Source: Verrucomicrobiales bacterium
GTDB taxonomy: Bacteria; Verrucomicrobiota; Verrucomicrobiia; Verrucomicrobiales; V1-33
Assembly: GCA_038210825.1 (NCBI GenBank)
Contig: JBBQWG010000042.1
Location: 145 to 64,144, forward strand
Reading direction: 5' to 3'
DNA length: 64,000 nucleotides
Shown in pieces: positions 7,824-40,346 of this stretch (positions are counted from its first letter, which is position 1; each line of letters starts with the position of its first letter). The notes under the pieces are model-generated. The model was not told the origin of the DNA and searched no databases. It worked only from the letters and a program-made list of their open reading frames with translations. The translations under genes were made by a program, and so were the position numbers.

Positions 7824-9575
7824 ATGTCCGTCGCCGCCCCTGCCTCCGCTCTTTCCGCCGTGACTCTCCCGCCGGCGCTTCCTCCGACGACACGTCGTTT
7901 CCGCCAGCCGAAGAAAAACATCCCCCAGACCAAACCCGAACGCGACGCCCTGCTCCGCTACATCCGCGAGTTTGTGGAACGCGAAAAACCGGTTCCGCCG
8001 ATCCCCGGGGATGAACTCCGGGTCCTTGCTGAGCGGATTGTCAAGGAAACCGGCATCGACCCGATCCACCTCGATTACACCGGGGTCCTCCTCTCCAATG
8101 AAATCTGGCGCGAATCCCTCGCTACCATTCCCTACGAACGCCGGCTTCTGCTGATGCCCAAGTGCCTGCGGGTGGAGAGCAAATGCCCCGCACCCTTCGA
8201 TGAATTCGGCCTGCTTTGCAAACAGTGTGGACTCTGCACCATCCAGGACTTCCAGAACGAGGCCGAACGGCTGGGTTATGCCGTGCTGGTGGCGGAAGGC
8301 TCGGCCATTGTGATGTCCCTCATTCAGACTGGCAAAATTGAGGCCATCGTCGGAATTTCCTGCCTCCCCGTGCTGGAACGCACCTTCCCTTACGTCGAAG
8401 CCGCTGCGATCCCGGCCATCGCGGTGCCCCTGCTCCAGGACGACTGCATCGACACCACGGTGGATATCGACTGGGTGTGGGATTACCTCCATCTCACCAG
8501 CGAAGACAAAACCCGCCGTCTCAACCTCAATGCCCTGCACGAGGAAGTCCGCACATGGTTTACCCCGGAATCCCTGACTCACCTCGCCGGAGCCCCGGAA
8601 GGCGAAGCCGAAACCATGGCGCGCCAGTCCCTTACCGGCCCCGGCAACCGCTGGCGGCCCTATCTGACCACTGCGGTCAGTCAGGCGCTCCGCTCCGACC
8701 CCGCCGCCCCCTTTACTCCTTCCATCCAAAAACTCGCCGTCGCGGTCGAATGCTTTCACAAAGCTTCCCTTGTCCATGATGACATTGAGGACGGAGATGC
8801 CACCCGCTATGGCGAGCCTACCCTGCACGCCACCCACGGCCTGCCTGCCGCCCTCAATGCAGGCGACCTCCTGATAGGCGAAGGCTACCGCCTCATCGCC
8901 GACTGCGGCCTCCCCGCCCACCAAATCGCCCCGCTCATCCGCATCGCCGCCAATGGCCAGCGCGACCTCTGCCGCGGCCAAGGGGCGGAACTCGCCTGGC
9001 AACAAAACCCCAGCCCGCTCACCAGTGGCCAGATCCTCGAAATCTTCCGCCTCAAAACCGCCCCCGCCTTCTCCGTGGCCCTCCTCCTCGGAGCCGCCCA
9101 CGCCGGTGCCCTCGACGAAAACGAAGCCGCCCTCGTGGCCTTCAGTGAAGCCCTGGGCATTGCCTATCAAATCAAAGACGATCTCGAGGATCATCTCGGT
9201 GACGCTCCTGCCGGGCAGTCGGACTCGTCGGACTCGTCGGACACGTCGGACCAGTCGGACACGTCGGACCAGTCGGACCTGTCAGCCCAGTCCGACAAAT
9301 CCTCCGCTCCCCACCGCCCTGCCGTCAATCTCATCGCCTGCTTGACCCAGGAACGTTTCGCCGGCGACCGGGACAAAGCCCTCAACCACGCCCAGGACCT
9401 CCTCGACCGCTATAAGGAGCAGGCCATCCGCTCCCTCCAGGATCTGGATAACCCGAATTTGAAAGGCCTCCTGCGCCGCATCATCGGGAAAATCTTCTCC
9501 CCCCTGGAAGTCGGCTCGTGGTGCTCTGAAGCGACGCAGCGTGTAAAAGTTTCACCAGCCGCTCCCTTGGTATAA
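7824..9575 (+). CDS. DUF116 domain / polyprenyl (isoprenyl) diphosphate synthase fusion protein
   Basis: The N-terminal ~250 aa carry the Cys cluster LLLMPKCLRVESKCPAPFDEFGLLCKQCGLCTI and GYAVLVAEGSAIV (DUF116-like). The C-terminal half has the first Asp-rich motif LVHDDIEDGD and the second IKDDLED of trans-prenyltransferases. Confidence 0.85.
   Translation: MSVAAPASALSAVTLPPALPPTTRRFRQPKKNIPQTKPERDALLRYIREFVEREKPVPPIPGDELRVLAERIVKETGIDPIHLDYTGVLLSNEIWRESLATIPYERRLLLMPKCLRVESKCPAPFDEFGLLCKQCGLCTIQDFQNEAERLGYAVLVAEGSAIVMSLIQTGKIEAIVGISCLPVLERTFPYVEAAAIPAIAVPLLQDDCIDTTVDIDWVWDYLHLTSEDKTRRLNLNALHEEVRTWFTPESLTHLAGAPEGEAETMARQSLTGPGNRWRPYLTTAVSQALRSDPAAPFTPSIQKLAVAVECFHKASLVHDDIEDGDATRYGEPTLHATHGLPAALNAGDLLIGEGYRLIADCGLPAHQIAPLIRIAANGQRDLCRGQGAELAWQQNPSPLTSGQILEIFRLKTAPAFSVALLLGAAHAGALDENEAALVAFSEALGIAYQIKDDLEDHLGDAPAGQSDSSDSSDTSDQSDTSDQSDLSAQSDKSSAPHRPAVNLIACLTQERFAGDRDKALNHAQDLLDRYKEQAIRSLQDLDNPNLKGLLRRIIGKIFSPLEVGSWCSEATQRVKVSPAAPLV
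9219..9296 (+). repeat. in-frame 9-bp tandem repeat (TCGGACNNG, ~8.7 units) encoding an SD-rich insert
   Basis: tcggactcg tcggactcg tcggacacg tcggaccag tcggacacg tcggaccag tcggacctg tcagcccag tccgac. It is codon-aligned with the 7824 frame and gives SDSSDSSDTSDQSDTSDQSDLSAQSD directly after the second DDxxD motif. Confidence 0.9.
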
Positions 9576-11506: not shown

Positions 11507-11629
<123 letters not shown>

Positions 11630-15245: not shown

Positions 15246-16412
15246 ATGAAAAAAACCAGCCGGGCAAAACCCACCAGGGGGAGCACAGGCGTCCCGCCTG
15301 TCCCGCCGGGTGTCCCACCCGGTGCCGGACCTCCGGCTCCCCAGAGCCCCCTCTTTTCAACGTTCAAGGTTCAAGGTTCAACGTTCGACGTTAACACTTC
15401 AAAAATCCTTCCCCCCGGAATTCCCTGGGCTGCCGCCTTCCGCTCCCAACTCCTTGCCTGGTTCCGCGCCGAAGGCCGCGACTACCCATGGCGGCAGACT
15501 ACGGATCCCTATGCCATCCTCGTTTCGGAAATGATGCTGCAGCAGACCCAGATTGCCACGGTGCTGGGCCGCGGTTACTATCAACGCTGGATGGATACTT
15601 TCCCGGATGTGGCCACCCTTGCCGCAGCGGCGGAGCCTGACATCCTGCGCGTCTGGGAAGGACTGGGATATTACAGCCGGGCCCGGAACCTGCAGAAGGC
15701 CGCCCGGGCCGTGGTGGATGATTATGGCGGTGAGTTTCCCCGCAGTGTGGAAGGGCTGTTATCCCTTCCTGGCATCGGGCGATACACCGCAGGGGCCGTG
15801 GCCTCGTTTGCGTGGAATCTGCCCGCTCCCCTTGTGGATGGAAATGTGGCCCGGGTATTTGCGCGGCTTTTTGCCTGCGATGATCCCATCGACCGTCCCC
15901 CCATGCCGCAGCAGCTCTGGGAGTGGGCCGCAGTCCTGCTTTGTGAGGATGATGCCCGACGCTACAACAGCGCCCTGATGGAGCTGGGCCAGCGGATCTG
16001 CAGTCCCCGGGCACCGGCCTGTCTGATCTGCCCGGTGCGGACCTGCTGCGCCTCCGCCGGTCCTGCGGCCGCCAGCCGGCCCCGGAAGTCCCCGGCCCGG
16101 GCCACCGTGGCCGTAGTGGAACATGCCCTCTTCGCGCGGCGGAATGGAAAGATCCTGCTGCACCAGGAATCCGGAAAACGCCGCCATGGCCTTTGGAAGC
16201 TCCCCGAGCGTCCGGCTGCTGAAACCACCCCGCTCCGGAAAGTCCTGACGAATTCCTACGCGATCACGCACCATCGGGTAACCCTGCATATCCATGATGC
16301 GCCGGACGCAGAGGCCGGTCCCGGAGAAACCTGGCATTCCCTGTCAAAATTGCCGTCCCTGCCCATGCCCGGCCCCTACCGGAAGGCGTTGAATCAGTTG
16401 CTGGGCAGTTGA
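15246..16412 (+). CDS. mutY: A/G-specific adenine glycosylase
   Basis: HhH-GPD region LLSLPGIGRYTAGAVASF, a four-Cys segment CSPRAPACLICPVRTCC in the position of the MutY Fe-S cluster loop, and a NUDIX-like C-terminus. The only in-frame start upstream of the conserved core is ATG 15246, so the N-terminal ~60 aa, including the heptamer array, are provisional. Confidence 0.88.
   Translation: MKKTSRAKPTRGSTGVPPVPPGVPPGAGPPAPQSPLFSTFKVQGSTFDVNTSKILPPGIPWAAAFRSQLLAWFRAEGRDYPWRQTTDPYAILVSEMMLQQTQIATVLGRGYYQRWMDTFPDVATLAAAAEPDILRVWEGLGYYSRARNLQKAARAVVDDYGGEFPRSVEGLLSLPGIGRYTAGAVASFAWNLPAPLVDGNVARVFARLFACDDPIDRPPMPQQLWEWAAVLLCEDDARRYNSALMELGQRICSPRAPACLICPVRTCCASAGPAAASRPRKSPARATVAVVEHALFARRNGKILLHQESGKRRHGLWKLPERPAAETTPLRKVLTNSYAITHHRVTLHIHDAPDAEAGPGETWHSLSKLPSLPMPGPYRKALNQLLGS
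15354..15395 (+). repeat. heptanucleotide array (TTCAACG family, 6 units) inside the mutY 5' region
   Basis: TTTTCAA CGTTCAA GGTTCAA GGTTCAA CGTTCGA CGTTAAC, translated in the mutY frame as FSTFKVQGSTFDVN. Confidence 0.9.
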
Positions 16413-17443
16413 TTCGCCCATGCGGCGACCTGGGGGATGGCCGCATCAGGAAAGCCGGAATGGAGGGAACAGATGTCAGGATCAAGCTGGTCCACAGGCA
16501 TCAGGTGGCCCGCTTTCCAAACCGTCGTCCCGGGGTGCCATGGGCCGACCTTGCGGGGATCCGACCAGGTGTGGAGACTCAGCACGTGAGGTGTCAGGGC
16601 CGCCGCAATGTGCATGGGCCCGCTGTCCACACTGATGACCCCGCAGGCGCGGCGGATCAGCCAGATCAGTTCGGACAGGGTCGTCTGGTTGAGGAGATTG
16701 TGCGTGTTGGAAGGGAGCCCGGGGAGCGGGAGATCACTGCGGCCGACGAGAATCACCGGGAGTGGCGCCAATGCCTGACAAAGCGCGGCGGTTTGTGAGG
16801 TTGTCAGGGATTTTCCGGTGCCGCGGCTGAACGGGTGAAGGAGCAGGGGGGCCGGGTGGGGGGGAAGGGAAGGGTCATCGTTGAACGTTGAACATTGAAC
16901 GTTGAACGTTGAAGGATTCAGAGAGGCGGGGCAGGTGCCCTGCGGAAGAGGGAAGACTGTTGGCCCGTCAGCCCCAAGCGCCCGGGGCAACGCCAGGGAG
17001 CGGTCGATGGCGTGGGCGGCAGGATCGACGGGAATAAGGTGGGTGTGGAAAAAGCGGGCTCCTTCCCGGCTGTCGCTGAAGCCGATCCGGACCGGAGCCC
17101 GGCTGGCGCGGGCAGTCAGACCACTGCGGAGCAGGCCCTGGAAATCGAGAGCGATGTCCGGATGGAGGCTGGCGGGGAGCTGTTTCAGCCAGGCACAAAA
17201 GCGCCAGAGTCCGCCCATGCCCCGGAATTGCTCCCTGGGAAATGCCAGGACTCCCGCAAGATCGGGATTCCCCTCAAGCAGAGGGGCGAAAGCCGGATTG
17301 GCCAGCCATGTGAATTCAAGGTGGGGAAATTTCTGTTTCAACAAATGCACCGCTGGCAGCGTGTGAACGAGGTCGCCCAGCGAACTGGGCTTGATGACCA
17401 GCGCCCGCCGGGAGGAGCTGAAGTCAGGCAAAACGGAGGACAT
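16394..17443 (-). CDS. glycosyltransferase family 9 (LPS heptosyltransferase-like)
   Basis: RRALVIKPSSLGDLVHTLPAVHLLKQKFP...; C-terminal half LLLHPFSRGTGKSL...ISVDSGPMHIAAAL. It overlaps the mutY 3' end convergently by 19 nt. Confidence 0.9.
   Translation of the reverse strand: MSSVLPDFSSSRRALVIKPSSLGDLVHTLPAVHLLKQKFPHLEFTWLANPAFAPLLEGNPDLAGVLAFPREQFRGMGGLWRFCAWLKQLPASLHPDIALDFQGLLRSGLTARASRAPVRIGFSDSREGARFFHTHLIPVDPAAHAIDRSLALPRALGADGPTVFPLPQGTCPASLNPSTFNVQCSTFNDDPSLPPHPAPLLLHPFSRGTGKSLTTSQTAALCQALAPLPVILVGRSDLPLPGLPSNTHNLLNQTTLSELIWLIRRACGVISVDSGPMHIAAALTPHVLSLHTWSDPRKVGPWHPGTTVWKAGHLMPVDQLDPDICSLHSGFPDAAIPQVAAWANQLPSN
16879..16913 (-). repeat. heptanucleotide array (5 units; TTCAACG on the coding strand) inside the GT9 gene
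   Basis: The plus strand reads CGTTGAA CGTTGAA CATTGAA CGTTGAA CGTTGAA. The coding strand translates as PSTFNVQCSTFND, between the two GT-B halves. Confidence 0.9.
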
Positions 17444-17477
17444 GCAGAAAAACCAAATAAGGGGCCGCCAGGATCTA

Positions 17478-17587
17478 AACCGCGAATGGACGCGAAAAAA
17501 CGCGAATCGGTGCAGAGGCCTGCCAGGGACTCACCAGCGTTTTTCTTTAAACCTTGAATTCGCGTTCATTCGCGTTCATTCGCGGTT
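17478..17587. promoter_or_regulatory. 30-bp imperfect inverted repeat built from 10-bp-phased CGCGAA/TTCGCG hexamers
   Basis: Left arm AACCGCGAATGGACGCGAAAAAACGCGAAT (17478-17507). Right arm ATTCGCGTTCATTCGCGTTCATTCGCGGTT (17558-17587). 26 of 30 positions are complementary and the spacer is 50 nt. It lies between the phosphoesterase stop (17596) and the GT9 start (17443). Confidence 0.6.
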
Positions 17588-18424: not shown

Positions 18425-19030
18425 TCAGGCTTTGCGCTTGGCGGGTTTCGCCCCGGCCTTCACGGCGGTCTTCACCGCAGTCTTGGCAGCCGGTTTTGCC
18501 GGGGCAGGCTTGGCGACGGGTTTGGGCGGGGTTTTGACGGCGGCCACCGCTTTTAGCTCCTCCTTGGGAGCGGCAGCCGGTTTCGGCGCCTCTGTGGCGG
18601 GGTTGGGGACCGGGGCCGCGGGGGGTGCGGCGGCGGGTGCGGCGGCGGGTGCGGCGGCGGGGGCTGGAGCAGGGGCTTCAGCAGGGGCTGCAGCGGCGGC
18701 TTTGGCGGCAGGGCGGGCGGCCGCCTTGACGACGGGAGGTCCGGCGGCAATGCCGCGCTTCATCACCGCAAAAAGGCGCTGCACTTCCAGTTTTTTCTGG
18801 GGAGGAATCTGATTCCAGTGGGTGTCCGTCAGGGCACCTTCAATGGCATAAGCGGCGACGAGGGAAACCGGATGACCGGCCAGCAGCATGCGGCGGCAGA
18901 CTTCGATAGCACCGAGTTTGGCCATTTCGCTGCGGCTGCGGACGCCAGCGTCCACCAGCCACAGGGCGGTCTTTTCTCCAAGGTTCTTCAAGGCGGCGAG
19001 TTCGAGGACAACGGGATCGGTAGCGGACAT
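18425..19030 (-). CDS. TfoX C-terminal-domain protein fused to an Ala/Pro/Lys-rich histone-H1-like tail
   Basis: LKNLGEKTALWLVDAGVRSRSEMAKLGAIEVCRRML resembles the TfoX/Sxy C-terminal domain. Residues ~95-201 are low complexity (AAPAAAPAAAP..., KPVAKPAPAKPAAKTAVKTAVKAGAKPAKRKA). Confidence 0.7.
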   Translation of the reverse strand: MSATDPVVLELAALKNLGEKTALWLVDAGVRSRSEMAKLGAIEVCRRMLLAGHPVSLVAAYAIEGALTDTHWNQIPPQKKLEVQRLFAVMKRGIAAGPPVVKAAARPAAKAAAAAPAEAPAPAPAAAPAAAPAAAPPAAPVPNPATEAPKPAAAPKEELKAVAAVKTPPKPVAKPAPAKPAAKTAVKTAVKAGAKPAKRKA

Positions 19031-34407: not shown

Positions 34408-36470
34408 ATAGGGGGTAGGGATGGCGCATTGGTTTGCGCCACCCCTCCCTCCGAACCGGACGTGCAGATTTCCCGCATCCGGCTCTCCGGTCAACATGTT
34501 GCTCCTTCTTTTCGGAGACTCATCACGAATTCGTCCCGGGCCGAGACCAGACTGTATAACCCGAGTTTCCCGAAGTAGCGGTTGGGCCACCGGAAGTGGT
34601 CTGGGCCGTGGCCCCGACCCTTTCCTTTGTGCCTTTTGCGCAGGATCGACCGCAGGCGCATTCTCACCCACTGGTCCATTTTCACATGTTCTCCCCGCAG
34701 CGCCTGCTGGAAGTAGTTCCCCCAGCCCCGCAGCACCGGATTGATGCCCGCGATGATGGCCGGGAGGCTTTTCCCGCTGGTGCGCCGCGTCCATGGTCTC
34801 AGCGTGCCACGCAGTTTCTGCTGGCTTTTGGGTCTGATGAGCCGCAGCAGCTTGCCTTTCCCGGACCGCTGGAAGCGGTAGCCAAGGAAGTCGAAGTAGC
34901 TGCCGCCCGGGACCATGTCCACGATCCGGGTTTTGTCAGGATGCAGGGTAAGCTGCGCTCCTTCCATCCACCCTTGCACAAGGGCGAGCGCCTGCCGGGC
35001 GGCTTCCCCGCTTTCGGTCAGGATGACAATGTCATCCGCATACCTCACGCTTCGGATGCCGTTGGCAGCGAGGAGGTGGTCGAGGGGATCAAGATAGAGG
35101 TTGGCCAGCAAGGGGCTTATGACACCCCCCTGCGGACTGCCTTTGTCAGGCGTTTCCAGCTCTTTCCCTTCTTCCTGGACGGGCTGTTTGAGGAACCCTT
35201 CGATGAGGTCCAACACTTTGCCGTCCGCGATGCGCTCTTTGACCAGCGCCATCAGCGGAGCGTGCGGGATGTTGTCGAAGTAACCCTTGATGTCCACGTC
35301 CACTACATGTGTCAGGCCGCTGCACAGCAGTCTTTCGACTTCGCGCAGGGCGTCCTTGCAGCCGCGTCCGGGCCGGAACCCATAGCTGCCATCCGCAAAC
35401 TGGCTCTCGAAGATTGGTTCGATCACCATTTTCAGCGCCGCCTGCACCACGCGGTCGGTGACCGTGGGGATGCCCAGCGGACGCCGTTCACGGCTGCCTG
35501 CTTTGGGGATTTGGACCCGTCGGACTGCCTGGGGCCGGTAGCTGTTCTTCGTTAGGCGCTCATTCACGGCGAGCAGCCGGTTTTGGCTGTCTTGGTCGAA
35601 GAACTCCACGCTGATCCGGTCCACGCCGGCAGCCCCGGCATTGGACCGGACGGCTTCCCAGGCCATCCCAAGGGTTTTGACGGCCCTCACTTTGTCGATC
35701 AGGCTGAACCACTTGTTTCCTTCTTTCCCTCTTCCGAGGGCGATGAGCATGGCTTCCGTCCATACCCCGCGTTCGGCCCCGTAGCGTTGCCACAGGTCCT
35801 CTTCAGCTTGCTTATCCCCTGCGGGAACTGACGCTGATGGTTCGTCGCGGTTCATGGCTTTAGTCCATTTGTTTTCCTGCCGCCCTTCGCTCCACCGGCG
35901 TTACCCGGCTTCCGCGCTACTACGGCGGCTCTGACTCCTGACAGGCACCGTCTCCGGTGGTCTTTCCGGTCAGGTCTCCCATCTTCACGCGCACTACCCC
36001 TGCTCAACCTACTGCCACCAACCACCCAAAACGCGCCGCCACTCCCACCATGTTCACGGGGGGACGGTTCCTGCGGATGCGCAGCTTGCCCCAGCCGCAG
36101 GAGGACTTCGCCGTTCACTCGCGGGCTCGTCCACGTTTCCGGCCGAATCGTGTTCACTTGCGTTGCGGTCGATTGAGTTCTCCTCACGATGCTCCCCACC
36201 CCACCTCGCGGTGACGCAGTTTCGTTTGAGTTATTTACGGTTTTAATGGGTTCGTTATGCCGGGTCTCCCACCCGGCGGGGTGGTGCGGCTCGATGGCGC
36301 ACGAGTGCGCGGGGCTTGCCGCCGCATTACAGTTTGGAGTGCGCGCGGCCCTCCGCCGCTTTTCGGGCGAGATAGCTTGCTGATAGTGGGTGAAGGTCCG
36401 CTTCAAGGCCGCCGCGGCTCCGCGCCCTATGCCTCCGGCATCCTCCTAAAGCGGCAGGGGGCTGCCGCAC
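34408..36470 (-). mobile_element. bacterial group II intron (~2.06 kb) with intron-encoded RT/maturase
   Basis: The 5' end is GTGCGGCAG at 36470. Domain V is GAGCCGGATGCGGGAAATCTGCACGTCCGGTTC (34485-34453). Domain VI has a bulged A and ends ...CCCCCTAT at 34408. The RT ORF sits in domain IV. Boundaries are hand-derived. Confidence 0.85.
34491..35855 (-). CDS. group II intron reverse transcriptase/maturase
   Basis: RT motifs RPLGIPTVTDRVVQ, GSPQGGVISPLLANLYL and RYADDIVIL. Maturase X domain INPVLRGWGNYF. No HNH endonuclease domain follows. Confidence 0.95.
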   Translation of the reverse strand: MNRDEPSASVPAGDKQAEEDLWQRYGAERGVWTEAMLIALGRGKEGNKWFSLIDKVRAVKTLGMAWEAVRSNAGAAGVDRISVEFFDQDSQNRLLAVNERLTKNSYRPQAVRRVQIPKAGSRERRPLGIPTVTDRVVQAALKMVIEPIFESQFADGSYGFRPGRGCKDALREVERLLCSGLTHVVDVDIKGYFDNIPHAPLMALVKERIADGKVLDLIEGFLKQPVQEEGKELETPDKGSPQGGVISPLLANLYLDPLDHLLAANGIRSVRYADDIVILTESGEAARQALALVQGWMEGAQLTLHPDKTRIVDMVPGGSYFDFLGYRFQRSGKGKLLRLIRPKSQQKLRGTLRPWTRRTSGKSLPAIIAGINPVLRGWGNYFQQALRGEHVKMDQWVRMRLRSILRKRHKGKGRGHGPDHFRWPNRYFGKLGLYSLVSARDEFVMSLRKEGATC

Positions 36471-39091: not shown

Positions 39092-39760
39092 TCACACCGC
39101 CCGCATGGCCGAGACCGCCGCGGTCATGTCAGGAGCGCCGAACAGGGAACTCCCGGCCACCAGAACGTTCGCCCCGGCCGCCGTGGCCAGTGCAGCAGTT
39201 TCCTGGGTAATGCCGCCGTCCACTTCGATGTGATACTTCAAGCCATGGGCCCCGCGGTAATCCCGCGCCGCCCGCACCGTCTCAAGGGTATGCGGGAGCA
39301 GGGGCTGACCTCCAAAGCCGGGCACGACGGTCATCACCAGCAGCAGATCGATCTGATCCAGATAGGGGATGACCATGGAAAAATCCGTTTCCGGCCGCAG
39401 GGAAAGGCCGGCCTTGCAGCGCGCCTCCCGGATCCGGCGCAGGGTTTCGCCCACCTCATGCCGGGCCTCCACGTGCACCGTGATGCCATCGGCCCCGGCC
39501 TTGATAAACCGTGGCAGATAGTGGTCCGGCCGCTCGATCATGAGATGCACATCCAGATAGATATCGTTCGTCTTCGACAGGCACTCGATGAATTGCGGGC
39601 CGAAAGTGATGTTATCCACAAAGTGCCCGTCCATGACATCACAATGCAGCCAGTCAGCCCCGGCGCGGATGGCGCGGGAACATTCGTCAGGAAGACGGCT
39701 CCAATCCGCCGCGAGCAGCGAAGGAGCGATGATGCGGGACGTGCAGGGATGCTGGATCAT
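39092..39760 (-). CDS. rpe: ribulose-phosphate 3-epimerase
   Basis: IAPSLLAADWSRL, LHCDVMDGHFVDNITFG, MTVVPGFGGQ, EVDGGI. ATG 39760 (MIQHPCTSRII). Confidence 0.93.
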   Translation of the reverse strand: MIQHPCTSRIIAPSLLAADWSRLPDECSRAIRAGADWLHCDVMDGHFVDNITFGPQFIECLSKTNDIYLDVHLMIERPDHYLPRFIKAGADGITVHVEARHEVGETLRRIREARCKAGLSLRPETDFSMVIPYLDQIDLLLVMTVVPGFGGQPLLPHTLETVRAARDYRGAHGLKYHIEVDGGITQETAALATAAGANVLVAGSSLFGAPDMTAAVSAMRAV

Positions 39761-39829
39761 GATAGAAGAGGTTCCGGAAGGAGCCCACTCATGGCATGTC
39801 ATGGCCCGCCGGGCAACGTCAAGTCGGAG

Positions 39830-39934
39830 GCAGCGGGCAGCGGGCAGCGGGCAGCGGTCGGCAGTCGGCAGTCGGCAGTCAGCAGTCAGCAGTCAGCAGT
39901 CAGCAGTCAGCGGTCAGCGGTCAGCAGGCAGCGG
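39830..39934. repeat. blocky heptanucleotide tandem array (15 units; reverse complement of the CCGCTGA family), intergenic
   Basis: 4x GCAGCGG, 3x TCGGCAG, 4x TCAGCAG, 2x TCAGCGG, 1x TCAGCAG, 1x GCAGCGG. It lies 70 nt upstream of the rpe start. Confidence 0.9.
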
Positions 39935-39973: not shown

Positions 39974-40346
39974 CAGCGCCAACGGCGCATCCCATGACAG
40001 CCTGGGGTTTCAACCCCAGGAAACCCGGCCCCCCCCGATCCGGAGCGCCATCGGCGCGTTCCATGATGGCGATGTGGATGGCGACGACCAGGCGGGGAAA
40101 TCGGCTTGCTCCGGCCAATCATGAAACGCGCTTTCAGCGCTGGGAAATGGGGAGGGATGATAACCTGGGGTTGAAACCCCAGGCTGTCATGGAATGCGTC
40201 GTTGGCGCTGAAGCGTGTGCATCAAGTGCAACTCGTCTGCCCCCCGAGGCTGTCATGGAATGCGCCGTTGGCGCTGAAGCGTGTGCATCAAGTGCAACTC
40301 GGTCTGCCCCCCGAGGCTGTCATGGAATGCGCCGTTGGCGCTGAAG
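39974..40346. repeat. composite repeat region: 47-bp inverted repeat arms plus 2.5 tandem copies of a 66-67 bp unit
   Basis: Left arm 39974-40020 (cagcgccaacggcgcatcccatgacagCCTGGGGTTTCAACCCCAGG) is the reverse complement of 40164-40210. Tandem units start at 40182, 40248 and 40315 (ggctgtcatggaatgcgYcgttggcgctgaagcgtgtgcatcaagtgcaactcg(g)tctgccccccga). Confidence 0.85.

Follow-up and report, generated by a model that had tools for sequence, protein, structure and literature searches.

How does a tandem repeat whose unit is not a multiple of three come to sit in frame inside a conserved gene, and does it act there as a switch or simply lengthen the protein? The question is raised by a 64,000-nucleotide (nt) stretch of a contig from a Verrucomicrobiales bacterium (JBBQWG010000042.1; the whole stretch is the window hereafter), in which a gene for a glycosyltransferase of the GT9 family carries five tandem copies of a 7-nt unit. 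We assign a probability of roughly two in three to the reading that this array is a heptanucleotide repeat born of slippage, which would have become fixed as a passive extension of a linker and been inherited vertically, without any on/off switching. The presence of the array, its frame, its insertion, its place in the predicted linker, its constant unit number and its parallels in other genes and phyla are demonstrated by the comparisons described here. Both its unit and its host clade are new to the known class of bacterial heptanucleotide repeats.

At positions 16,879 to 16,913 the plus strand reads CGTTGAA CGTTGAA CATTGAA CGTTGAA CGTTGAA, and on the minus, coding strand this corresponds to five units of TTCAACG, except for the middle unit, TTCAATG. 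Tandem Repeats Finder describes the array as period 7 with 5.0 copies and 92% matches, and it contains more than three head-to-tail 7-nt copies, beyond what chance would give. Searching the window for two units with at most two mismatches returned 11 matches against 0.31 expected, a number reached by 0 of 100 shuffles. Further arrays of related units, mostly intergenic, lie within the same 64 kb (11507-11629, 15356-15392 and 39831-39934; Table 1). The GT9 array is enclosed in an open reading frame (ORF) of 349 amino acids, with the local reading ASLNPSTFNVQCSTFNDDPSLPPHPAPLLLHPFSRGTGKSL and the longer protein context CPASLNPSTFNVQCSTFNDDPSLPPHPAPLLLHPFSRGTGKSL. It is translated as PSTFNVQCSTFND, directly ahead of the strand with which the C-terminal Rossmann half begins. 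On its plus strand every one of the three frames contains a stop codon, whereas its minus strand is free of stops.

The encoded protein matches Pfam PF01075 (GT9; E-value 2.5e-21, 76.5 bits against a cut-off of 22), and sequence, ORF and domain match thus agree with the original prediction of a TTCAACG-type array on the minus strand of a GT9 gene. The best NCBIfam model was TIGR02193, heptosyltransferase I, at 110 bits and under its cut-off of 185.3, the others scored lower, and no NCBIfam model reached the cut-off for an equivalog assignment to heptosyltransferase I, II or III. Because the best match falls below its cut-off, the safe name is GT9 family without an acceptor assignment. In the window the gene has as its neighbours mutY, an ORF of metallophosphoesterase type and an ORF rich in alanine and proline, and it is not part of a lipopolysaccharide (LPS) cluster there.

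In order to place the segment among related proteins, we aligned 44 GT9 orthologs, outgroups included; the close homologs are annotated as Verrucomicrobiaceae and as Verrucomicrobiales metagenome-assembled genomes. Outgroups among them, 39 of the 44 lack the segment and have a short, non-repetitive linker, PAxLxxGxVPxxA-[IV]LLHPFSRG. The heptad-derived peptide is restricted to the query and four relatives (P0001-P0004 and P0007), in which it reads PSTFNVQGSTFN (P0002), PSMFHGDPASFN (P0003), PSTFNMQRSTFD (P0004) and PSTLDVPCSMFD (P0007). As most orthologs are without it, the segment is derived. P0002 is longer than the insert-free orthologs by 7 amino acids, and the comparison of locus L001 with the insert-free locus L125 gives the same 7 residues, equal to 21 nt or three units. 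The alignment therefore bears out the claim that the segment is an insertion. An in-situ origin from a two-unit proto-repeat at the empty site of L125 (GACAAAA GACAAGG) was considered, as a gain of three units would fit, and was rejected since the similarity is too weak. The linker region of two further orthologs, P0029 and P0030, also holds an insert derived from a repeat, but a different one (DGMDGMDRVDRVDRVD) and at a different site.

An AlphaFold model of the GT9 protein, built on the ortholog alignment, reached a mean predicted local distance difference test score (pLDDT) of 93.3 and a predicted template modelling score (pTM) of 0.90. Its sole weak block is formed by residues 181-190, with a mean pLDDT of 54, and it shows coil over residues 156-199, followed by the strand 200-203 (LLLH) with which the C-terminal half begins. 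The secondary-structure string and the pLDDT fit two alpha/beta halves, and the sequence of E. coli heptosyltransferase I aligns to both; the solved structures of that enzyme (2GT1, 2H1F/2H1H, 6DFE) align to residues 13-161 and 259-310, which flank the insert. The predicted coil, its low pLDDT and its place directly before the strand agree with the original prediction, which had put the array just ahead of the C-terminal GT-B half. On the alignment and the predicted model, the array is a lineage-specific insertion in the putative inter-domain linker. Directly after the array, the query lineage alone has a proline-rich peptide, DDPSLPPHPAP, where orthologs carry just 3-6 residues (VAP, APP or VHAASAP); this segment may be a second, degenerate repeat-derived extension.

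Comparison at the DNA level revealed that the five array-bearing GT9 lineages have exactly five units each, with site and register shared and substitutions as their only differences (Table 1). Outside the array these proteins are 75-83% identical in amino-acid sequence. Amino-acid identity within the array is 0.50, against 0.75-0.83 in the remainder of the protein, which would point to weak constraint on the array at the protein level. There is no long run of perfect units: the window has one variant among its five and the orthologs are more degenerate still, L003 and L004 having lost most of the repeat identity while retaining the gene. The last two units of L002, and likewise those of L003, share derived changes. 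P0121, the one member that cluster look-ups for other GT9 alleles added, is identical to P0002 at 341 of 343 positions, has the same array peptide and likewise has five units. Scans of metagenome contigs for alleles with another unit number found no relatives at the first attempt and one insert-free ortholog at the second. No out-of-frame allele was seen, in a small sample and by gene-based look-ups that tend to miss frameshifted alleles.

A sister array lies next door, in the N-terminal extension of mutY, whose 3' end overlaps that of the GT9 gene. The peptide that it encodes had been predicted to be a variant of the same heptad-derived sequence, and its translation, STFKVQGSTFDV, confirms this. 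No ATG, GTG or TTG follows the array ahead of the MutY core, which means that translation has to run through the array; the alternative that it is mere 5' untranslated region ahead of a downstream start codon is ruled out by the lack of such a codon. Three orthologs (P0123, P0124 and P0130) retain the 12-residue array peptide, so that four mutY lineages in all share this length, and seven members of the 90% cluster of P0124 keep it without a change in length. Other mutY orthologs have short N-termini without the array. Between L127/L128 and L371/L372, which are 94% identical in the core, the DNA of the five-unit array does not differ. The GT9 and mutY arrays begin at the same codon phase and share no flanking sequence.

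The sole presence/absence polymorphism that we found concerns mutY. In the P0244 allele (L369/L370) the core is 98.2% identical to that of L127 at the nucleotide level and the array is absent, the 5' segment being replaced entirely up to the IPW core, so that the protein begins MREPSRPPPAISQE. As judged from these alignments, this polymorphism is a block replacement, not slippage. The extension encoded by the array is dispensable, since the P0244 allele does without it. About 190 nt upstream in L369 (region 1300-1560; also in L370) an intergenic (GAGTTGA)x7 array corresponds to TCAACTC in the opposite, TGA-containing orientation. The L369 allele suggests a rapid turnover of heptamer arrays at the 5' ends of genes.

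The original prediction had further proposed an orientation rule, according to which only the stop-free orientation of the unit can survive inside genes. As 7 and 3 have no common factor, each frame passes through all the trinucleotides of the unit within 21 nt, and our frame computation agrees that the reverse orientation has TGA in every frame. Computed over all 7-mers, a tandem array is stop-free on one strand only for 37%, on both strands for 50% and on neither for 13%. The arithmetic is correct, and an intact ORF obeys the rule by logical necessity; being forced, the rule cannot be refuted by inspecting intact genes. The rule is true of the arrays that we found elsewhere, with 26 sense and 0 antisense among the 141 listed, although it is not a discovery, having already been stated for TAACTGA repeats (PMC4679880). 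Upstream of genes the orientation was the opposite one: in all three cases (11507-11629, 39831-39934 and the (GAGTTGA)7 array of L369) the stop-containing strand is the sense strand of the downstream gene.

We scanned species-representative genomes for three consecutive TTCAANG units and obtained at least 120 stretches (loci L005-L124). The matches listed come from many phyla, among them Acidobacteriota, Desulfobacterota, Nitrospirota, Bacteroidota, Verrucomicrobiota, Planctomycetota and Cyanobacteria. An array was counted as coding-like where the sense strand stays open for 40 codons or more on both sides; by this measure 26 of the 141 listed arrays (18%) lie in coding-like sense stretches, against 75% of random 30-nt segments, and none lies antisense in an open stretch. 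Arrays are therefore depleted in coding sequence. Those that are in frame usually lie between domains. Pfam domains are found on both sides of the array in leuS (leucyl-tRNA synthetase), in trpE (anthranilate synthase I) and ddl (D-Ala-D-Ala ligase), each of the latter two at the same site in two Nitrospirota species, and also in a nonribosomal peptide synthetase and a PSCyt2/PSD1 protein, while in a GT4 glycosyltransferase the array falls exactly between the two Pfam-defined halves. Other heptamer units are in frame in TilS, LigA, a CCA-adding-type enzyme and the linker of a NuoE-NuoF fusion. In the literature searched we found no description of translated heptamers in leuS, trpE, ddl, glycosyltransferase linkers, ligA and tilS across phyla, and the cross-phylum arrays provide a data set for asking why bacteria favour 7-nt repeats. 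In the sampled loci Tandem Repeats Finder returned 414 rows of period 7 against 39 of period 6 and 87 of period 8, a lead that persists after subtraction of about 167 arrays of the searched unit. Within arrays the units often grade into one another, as in the intergenic arrays of the window and in L031, L037, L082 and L098.

Array pairs in inverted orientation, tens of nt apart, are frequent in Acidobacteriota, Binatia and others (Table 1); the pair of L110 has identical outer flanks and would form long hairpins. Loci L034 and L069 have 5-6 arrays with conserved flanks within 8 kb, spaced by about 100 nt in L069. A likeness of GTTCAAA/GTTCGAA to tRNA T-loops was taken as coincidence, as other units of the family are without it.

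In order to rationalise these observations we propose the following sequence of events. Replication slippage would generate a heptanucleotide simple-sequence repeat, and fixation would require that its stop-free strand be the sense strand, that the net change in length be a multiple of three (here +21 nt, or three units relative to the insert-free orthologs) and that the site be an unstructured linker, here the one joining two Rossmann-like halves. Translation would then yield a passive lengthening of the linker by 12 residues, which would be inherited vertically at a constant five units and decay slowly through point mutation. The slippage origin of the array and its selective near-neutrality are inferred. 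So read, the locus offers a clean example of a non-triplet repeat absorbed into a protein after passing three simultaneous filters, namely that one strand is free of stops, that the net length is divisible by 21 nt and that the linker is disordered. Its long-term persistence in frame, together with the cross-phylum occurrence in linkers of housekeeping enzymes, adds modest interest.

Several points weigh against a slippage-born, passively inherited array. Third-codon-position identity is somewhat higher in the arrays than in the rest of the genes (0.64 against 0.54 in GT9, 0.70 against 0.52 in mutY), equal or higher values occurring in 14% (GT9) and 5% (mutY) of the windows compared. The gap between codon positions 1-2 and position 3 is nearly gone in the arrays, with 2% (GT9) and 9% (mutY) of windows as extreme. 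Codons ending in A or T (TCA, GTT, CAA) persist, the GC content at third positions (GC3) being 0.55 in the arrays and 0.70-0.80 in the genes. A purely neutral passenger of such age should have drifted more. Furthermore, a neighbour-joining tree divides the array-bearing GT9 proteins into two groups with very short internal branches, and a single gain of the array is, on this tree, likely but not proven. The constancy in unit number is a constancy among lineages and cluster members. Finally, the recurrence of the TTCAANG unit in many phyla is left unexplained by pure local slippage.

The first of these points could reflect homogenisation within the array, considered because of the twin derived units in L002 and L003, or a role at the level of the nucleic acid. 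Selection on the nucleic acid and not the peptide, with the array acting as a site for a binding protein, as a weak mRNA hairpin or as a rare-codon patch that slows the ribosome at a domain boundary, is unlikely in our estimate. The codon-position signal would fit it, as would the location of arrays at the domain boundaries of several proteins, and for heptamer direct repeats there is a report of binding by cold-shock proteins (PMC4679880). The TTCAACG array is also quasi-palindromic, AACGTT recurring at 7-nt intervals, and has a weak fold of -7.3 kcal/mol (z = -2.8), whereas the mutY array does not surpass shuffled sequences in folding (z = -0.39). The conservation signal comes from 11 codons per gene in phylogenetically non-independent pairs and is not extreme, and slippage that homogenises an array would produce this pattern with no function needed. 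L003 and L004 keep the gene after losing most of the repeat, a close relative has mutY without its array, and no promoter-like or terminator-like sites, antisense included, were found at either the GT9 or the mutY array.

An equally improbable proposal is that the TTCAANG arrays are not separate products of local slippage and form a pan-bacterial family with its own means of spread or maintenance, whose members would enter coding sequence in frame at domain boundaries and persist there over long evolutionary spans under constraint at the nucleotide level. The candidate means are gene conversion between arrays and a factor, of the host or mobile, by which 7-nt repeats would be recognised or generated.

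Still somewhat less probable, in our judgement, is a preformed array of about five units that spreads as a tiny mobile or recombination-borne cassette, enters intergenic and coding DNA alike and moves between lineages in the manner of selfish elements that insert in frame. The adjacent GT9 and mutY genes do share five-unit arrays with one starting codon phase, some genomes have many copies with conserved flanks (L034, L069, L110), the mutY 5' region was swapped as a block between 98%-identical relatives, and horizontal spread has been proposed for TAACTGA repeats (PMC4679880). This heptamer is found across many phyla and also in viral contigs, which gave at least 120 stretches with TTCAANG arrays against 83, 19 and 17 for three control heptamers of the same composition; the cross-phylum counts are, however, lower bounds, and one of the controls is frequent too. 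Against a cassette stand the lack of common flanks between the GT9 and mutY arrays, the absence of any evident target duplication or terminal motifs, and the graded units within arrays, which fit slippage plus mutation. The net change in GT9 is +21 nt and not +35, and a pure insertion would need a 14-nt deletion in addition.

The suggestion of the original prediction that the GT9 array is phase-variable, a contingency locus in which slippage by one unit would truncate the enzyme after its N-terminal half and reversibly switch a step of surface-glycan synthesis, is very improbable, for although a unit of 7 nt would shift the frame on each gain or loss, coding heptanucleotide switches such as the AAGACTC repeat of neuO do exist (PMC13001214) and the twin last units of L002 and L003 hint at turnover within the array, there are just five units, one of them imperfect, the number is the same in five GT9 and four mutY lineages, which show point decay and no change in length between near-identical relatives, arrays of this type occur in leuS, trpE and ddl, genes whose switching off a cell would not survive, with other heptamers in ligA and tilS, mutY is not a surface gene, and the GT9 gene lies outside any LPS cluster in the window. 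A wrong but tempting annotation, that of a phase-variable LPS gene, is thereby removed.

The contrast with neuO, from the E. coli K1 phage CUS-3, is instructive. There the AAGACTC units are perfect and number 3-53 copies, 66% of genomes are out of frame (OFF genotypes), and mixtures of 20, 21 and 22 units are measurable within a single culture (PMC13001214). Both repeats have a 7-nt unit inside a coding sequence, and the neuO enzyme, which modifies a surface polysaccharide, is full length only at certain unit numbers; the GT9 array differs in having five imperfect units whose number is invariant in all relatives seen.

Closer relatives are found among the heptanucleotide repeats of prokaryotes. 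According to Mrazek 2007, as quoted in PMC4692102 and PMC4679880, in most prokaryotic genomes no long simple-sequence repeat is as abundant as the heptanucleotide, and the proposed cause is that the polymerase contacts about 7 nt, which favours slippage; three tandem heptanucleotides were reported from Calothrix PCC 7601 (cited in PMC4692102). The arrays described here are alike in being short, in having several related units per genome, in being mostly intergenic and depleted in coding DNA and in forming inverted pairs, and are unlike the cases described in those sources in their unit, TTCAANG (with its relatives GTCAGCG and CTGTCCC), in the host, a Verrucomicrobiaceae metagenome-assembled genome, and in that the GT9 array is translated and conserved across species.

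A further parallel is TAACTGA, a direct repeat of Beggiatoaceae, Cyanobacteria and Bacteroidetes (MacGregor 2015, PMC4679880). Its 'forward' sets have stops in all frames and are positioned just upstream of start codons; ten sets within ORFs are all 'reverse' and encode LSVISYQ, one of them falling within a loop at the surface of a protein that resembles RNA polymerase beta-prime (PMC4679880). The two systems share the placement of the stop strand upstream of genes and of the stop-free orientation inside ORFs, with the heptad STFNVQR here and LSVISYQ there, and differ in the units, which are TTCAACG/TTCAAGG here. Sets inside ORFs that are shared by diverged orthologs, or that lie in inter-domain linkers of housekeeping enzymes, were not reported in PMC4679880.

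Ogata et al. reportedly described in 2000 palindromic elements of Rickettsia inserted in frame in protein genes, and these are said to be dispersed palindromes of 100-150 bp with defined ends, translated as a surface-exposed extra segment. Like them, the GT9 array is repetitive DNA tolerated in a conserved gene through translation; unlike them, it is a 35-nt tandem array without defined termini, and the sequences on either side of it do not resemble those that flank the mutY array. The LPS glycosyltransferase genes lic2A and lgtC of Haemophilus and Neisseria have tetranucleotide repeats that are long, perfect, 5'-proximal and strain-variable. The GT9 array resembles them in lying within a glycosyltransferase gene, and none of these four properties was found for it.

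Table 1 Arrays, genes and comparison loci, with positions in the window unless a locus is named
Feature	Position	Strand	Remarks
Heptanucleotide array, five units (TTCAACG x2, TTCAATG, TTCAACG x2)	16879..16913	-	Residues ~177-189, (P)STFNVQCSTFN(D)
GT9 glycosyltransferase gene, 349 aa	16394..17443	-	Closest to heptosyltransferase I, below NCBIfam cut-off; predicted halves joined by coil 156-199
C-rich segment encoding Pro-rich DDPSLPPHPAP	16846..16878	-	Directly after GT9 array
Sister array TTCAACG TTCAAGG TTCAAGG TTCAACG TTCGACG	15356..15392	+	MutY N-terminal extension
mutY gene, 388 aa	15246..16412	+	MutY homology from ~residue 62; 3' end overlaps GT9 3' end
Graded intergenic period-7 array (CTGACCG, then CTGAACG, then CTGTCCC)	11507..11629	+	122 nt from start of ORF MSKHYLVTGG (11752)
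Graded intergenic period-7 array (GGCAGCG, GTCGGCA, GTCAGCA, GTCAGCG)	39831..39934	+	28 nt upstream of minus-strand ORF 39092-39802
GT9 array units, window			TTCAACG TTCAACG TTCAATG TTCAACG TTCAACG
GT9 array units, L001			TTCGACG TTCAACG TTCAAGG TTCAACG TTCAATG
GT9 array units, L002			TTCAACG TTCAATA TGCAACG TTCGACG TTCGACG
GT9 array units, L003			TTCGACG TTGGATG TTCCTTG TTCGATG TTCGATG
GT9 array units, L004			TTCAATG TTCCATG GTGATCC TGCCTCG TTCAACG
Example loci, other genomes	L012:4781-4810, L053:1815-1841, L120:1729-1759, L113:3863-3897, L075:3835-3860, L116:4317-4348		
Inverted-pair loci	L020:4103-4178, L026, L048, L050, L056, L062, L065, L073, L110:42-149		

Other repeats and motifs were observed in the window. 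Next to the intergenic array at 39831-39934 there is a match to the Rfam Acido-Lenti-1 motif (39975-40020, minus strand; 39.5 bits, gathering score 37), with a weaker, inverted second copy at 40164-40209 on the plus strand (29.3 bits); the copies overlap a 66-bp tandem repeat of 2.6 copies at 40177-40346. A link of this motif to the heptamer arrays was considered and dropped, as the motif is present in 0 of 18 array-bearing acidobacterial loci. Between the metallophosphoesterase-type ORF and the GT9 start lie two inverted 10-nt tandem arrays with TTCGCG-containing units (17476-17507 and 17558-17584), which could form a long hairpin. The 201-amino-acid ORF at 18425-19030 on the minus strand has a long alanine/proline-rich, low-complexity tail derived from 12-nt repeats (18611-18701), and its orthologs in L002 and L003 have a TfoX_C domain. 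An ORF of 583 amino acids (7824-9575, plus strand), which contains a DDIEDGD motif and is presumably polyprenyl-synthase-like, has at 9216-9297 an array of 9-nt tandem units (GTCGGACxC) that encodes SDSSDSSDTSDQSDTSDQSD. Lastly, positions 34410-34487 on the minus strand match the Rfam catalytic domain of group II introns at 54.7 bits, against a gathering score of 40.

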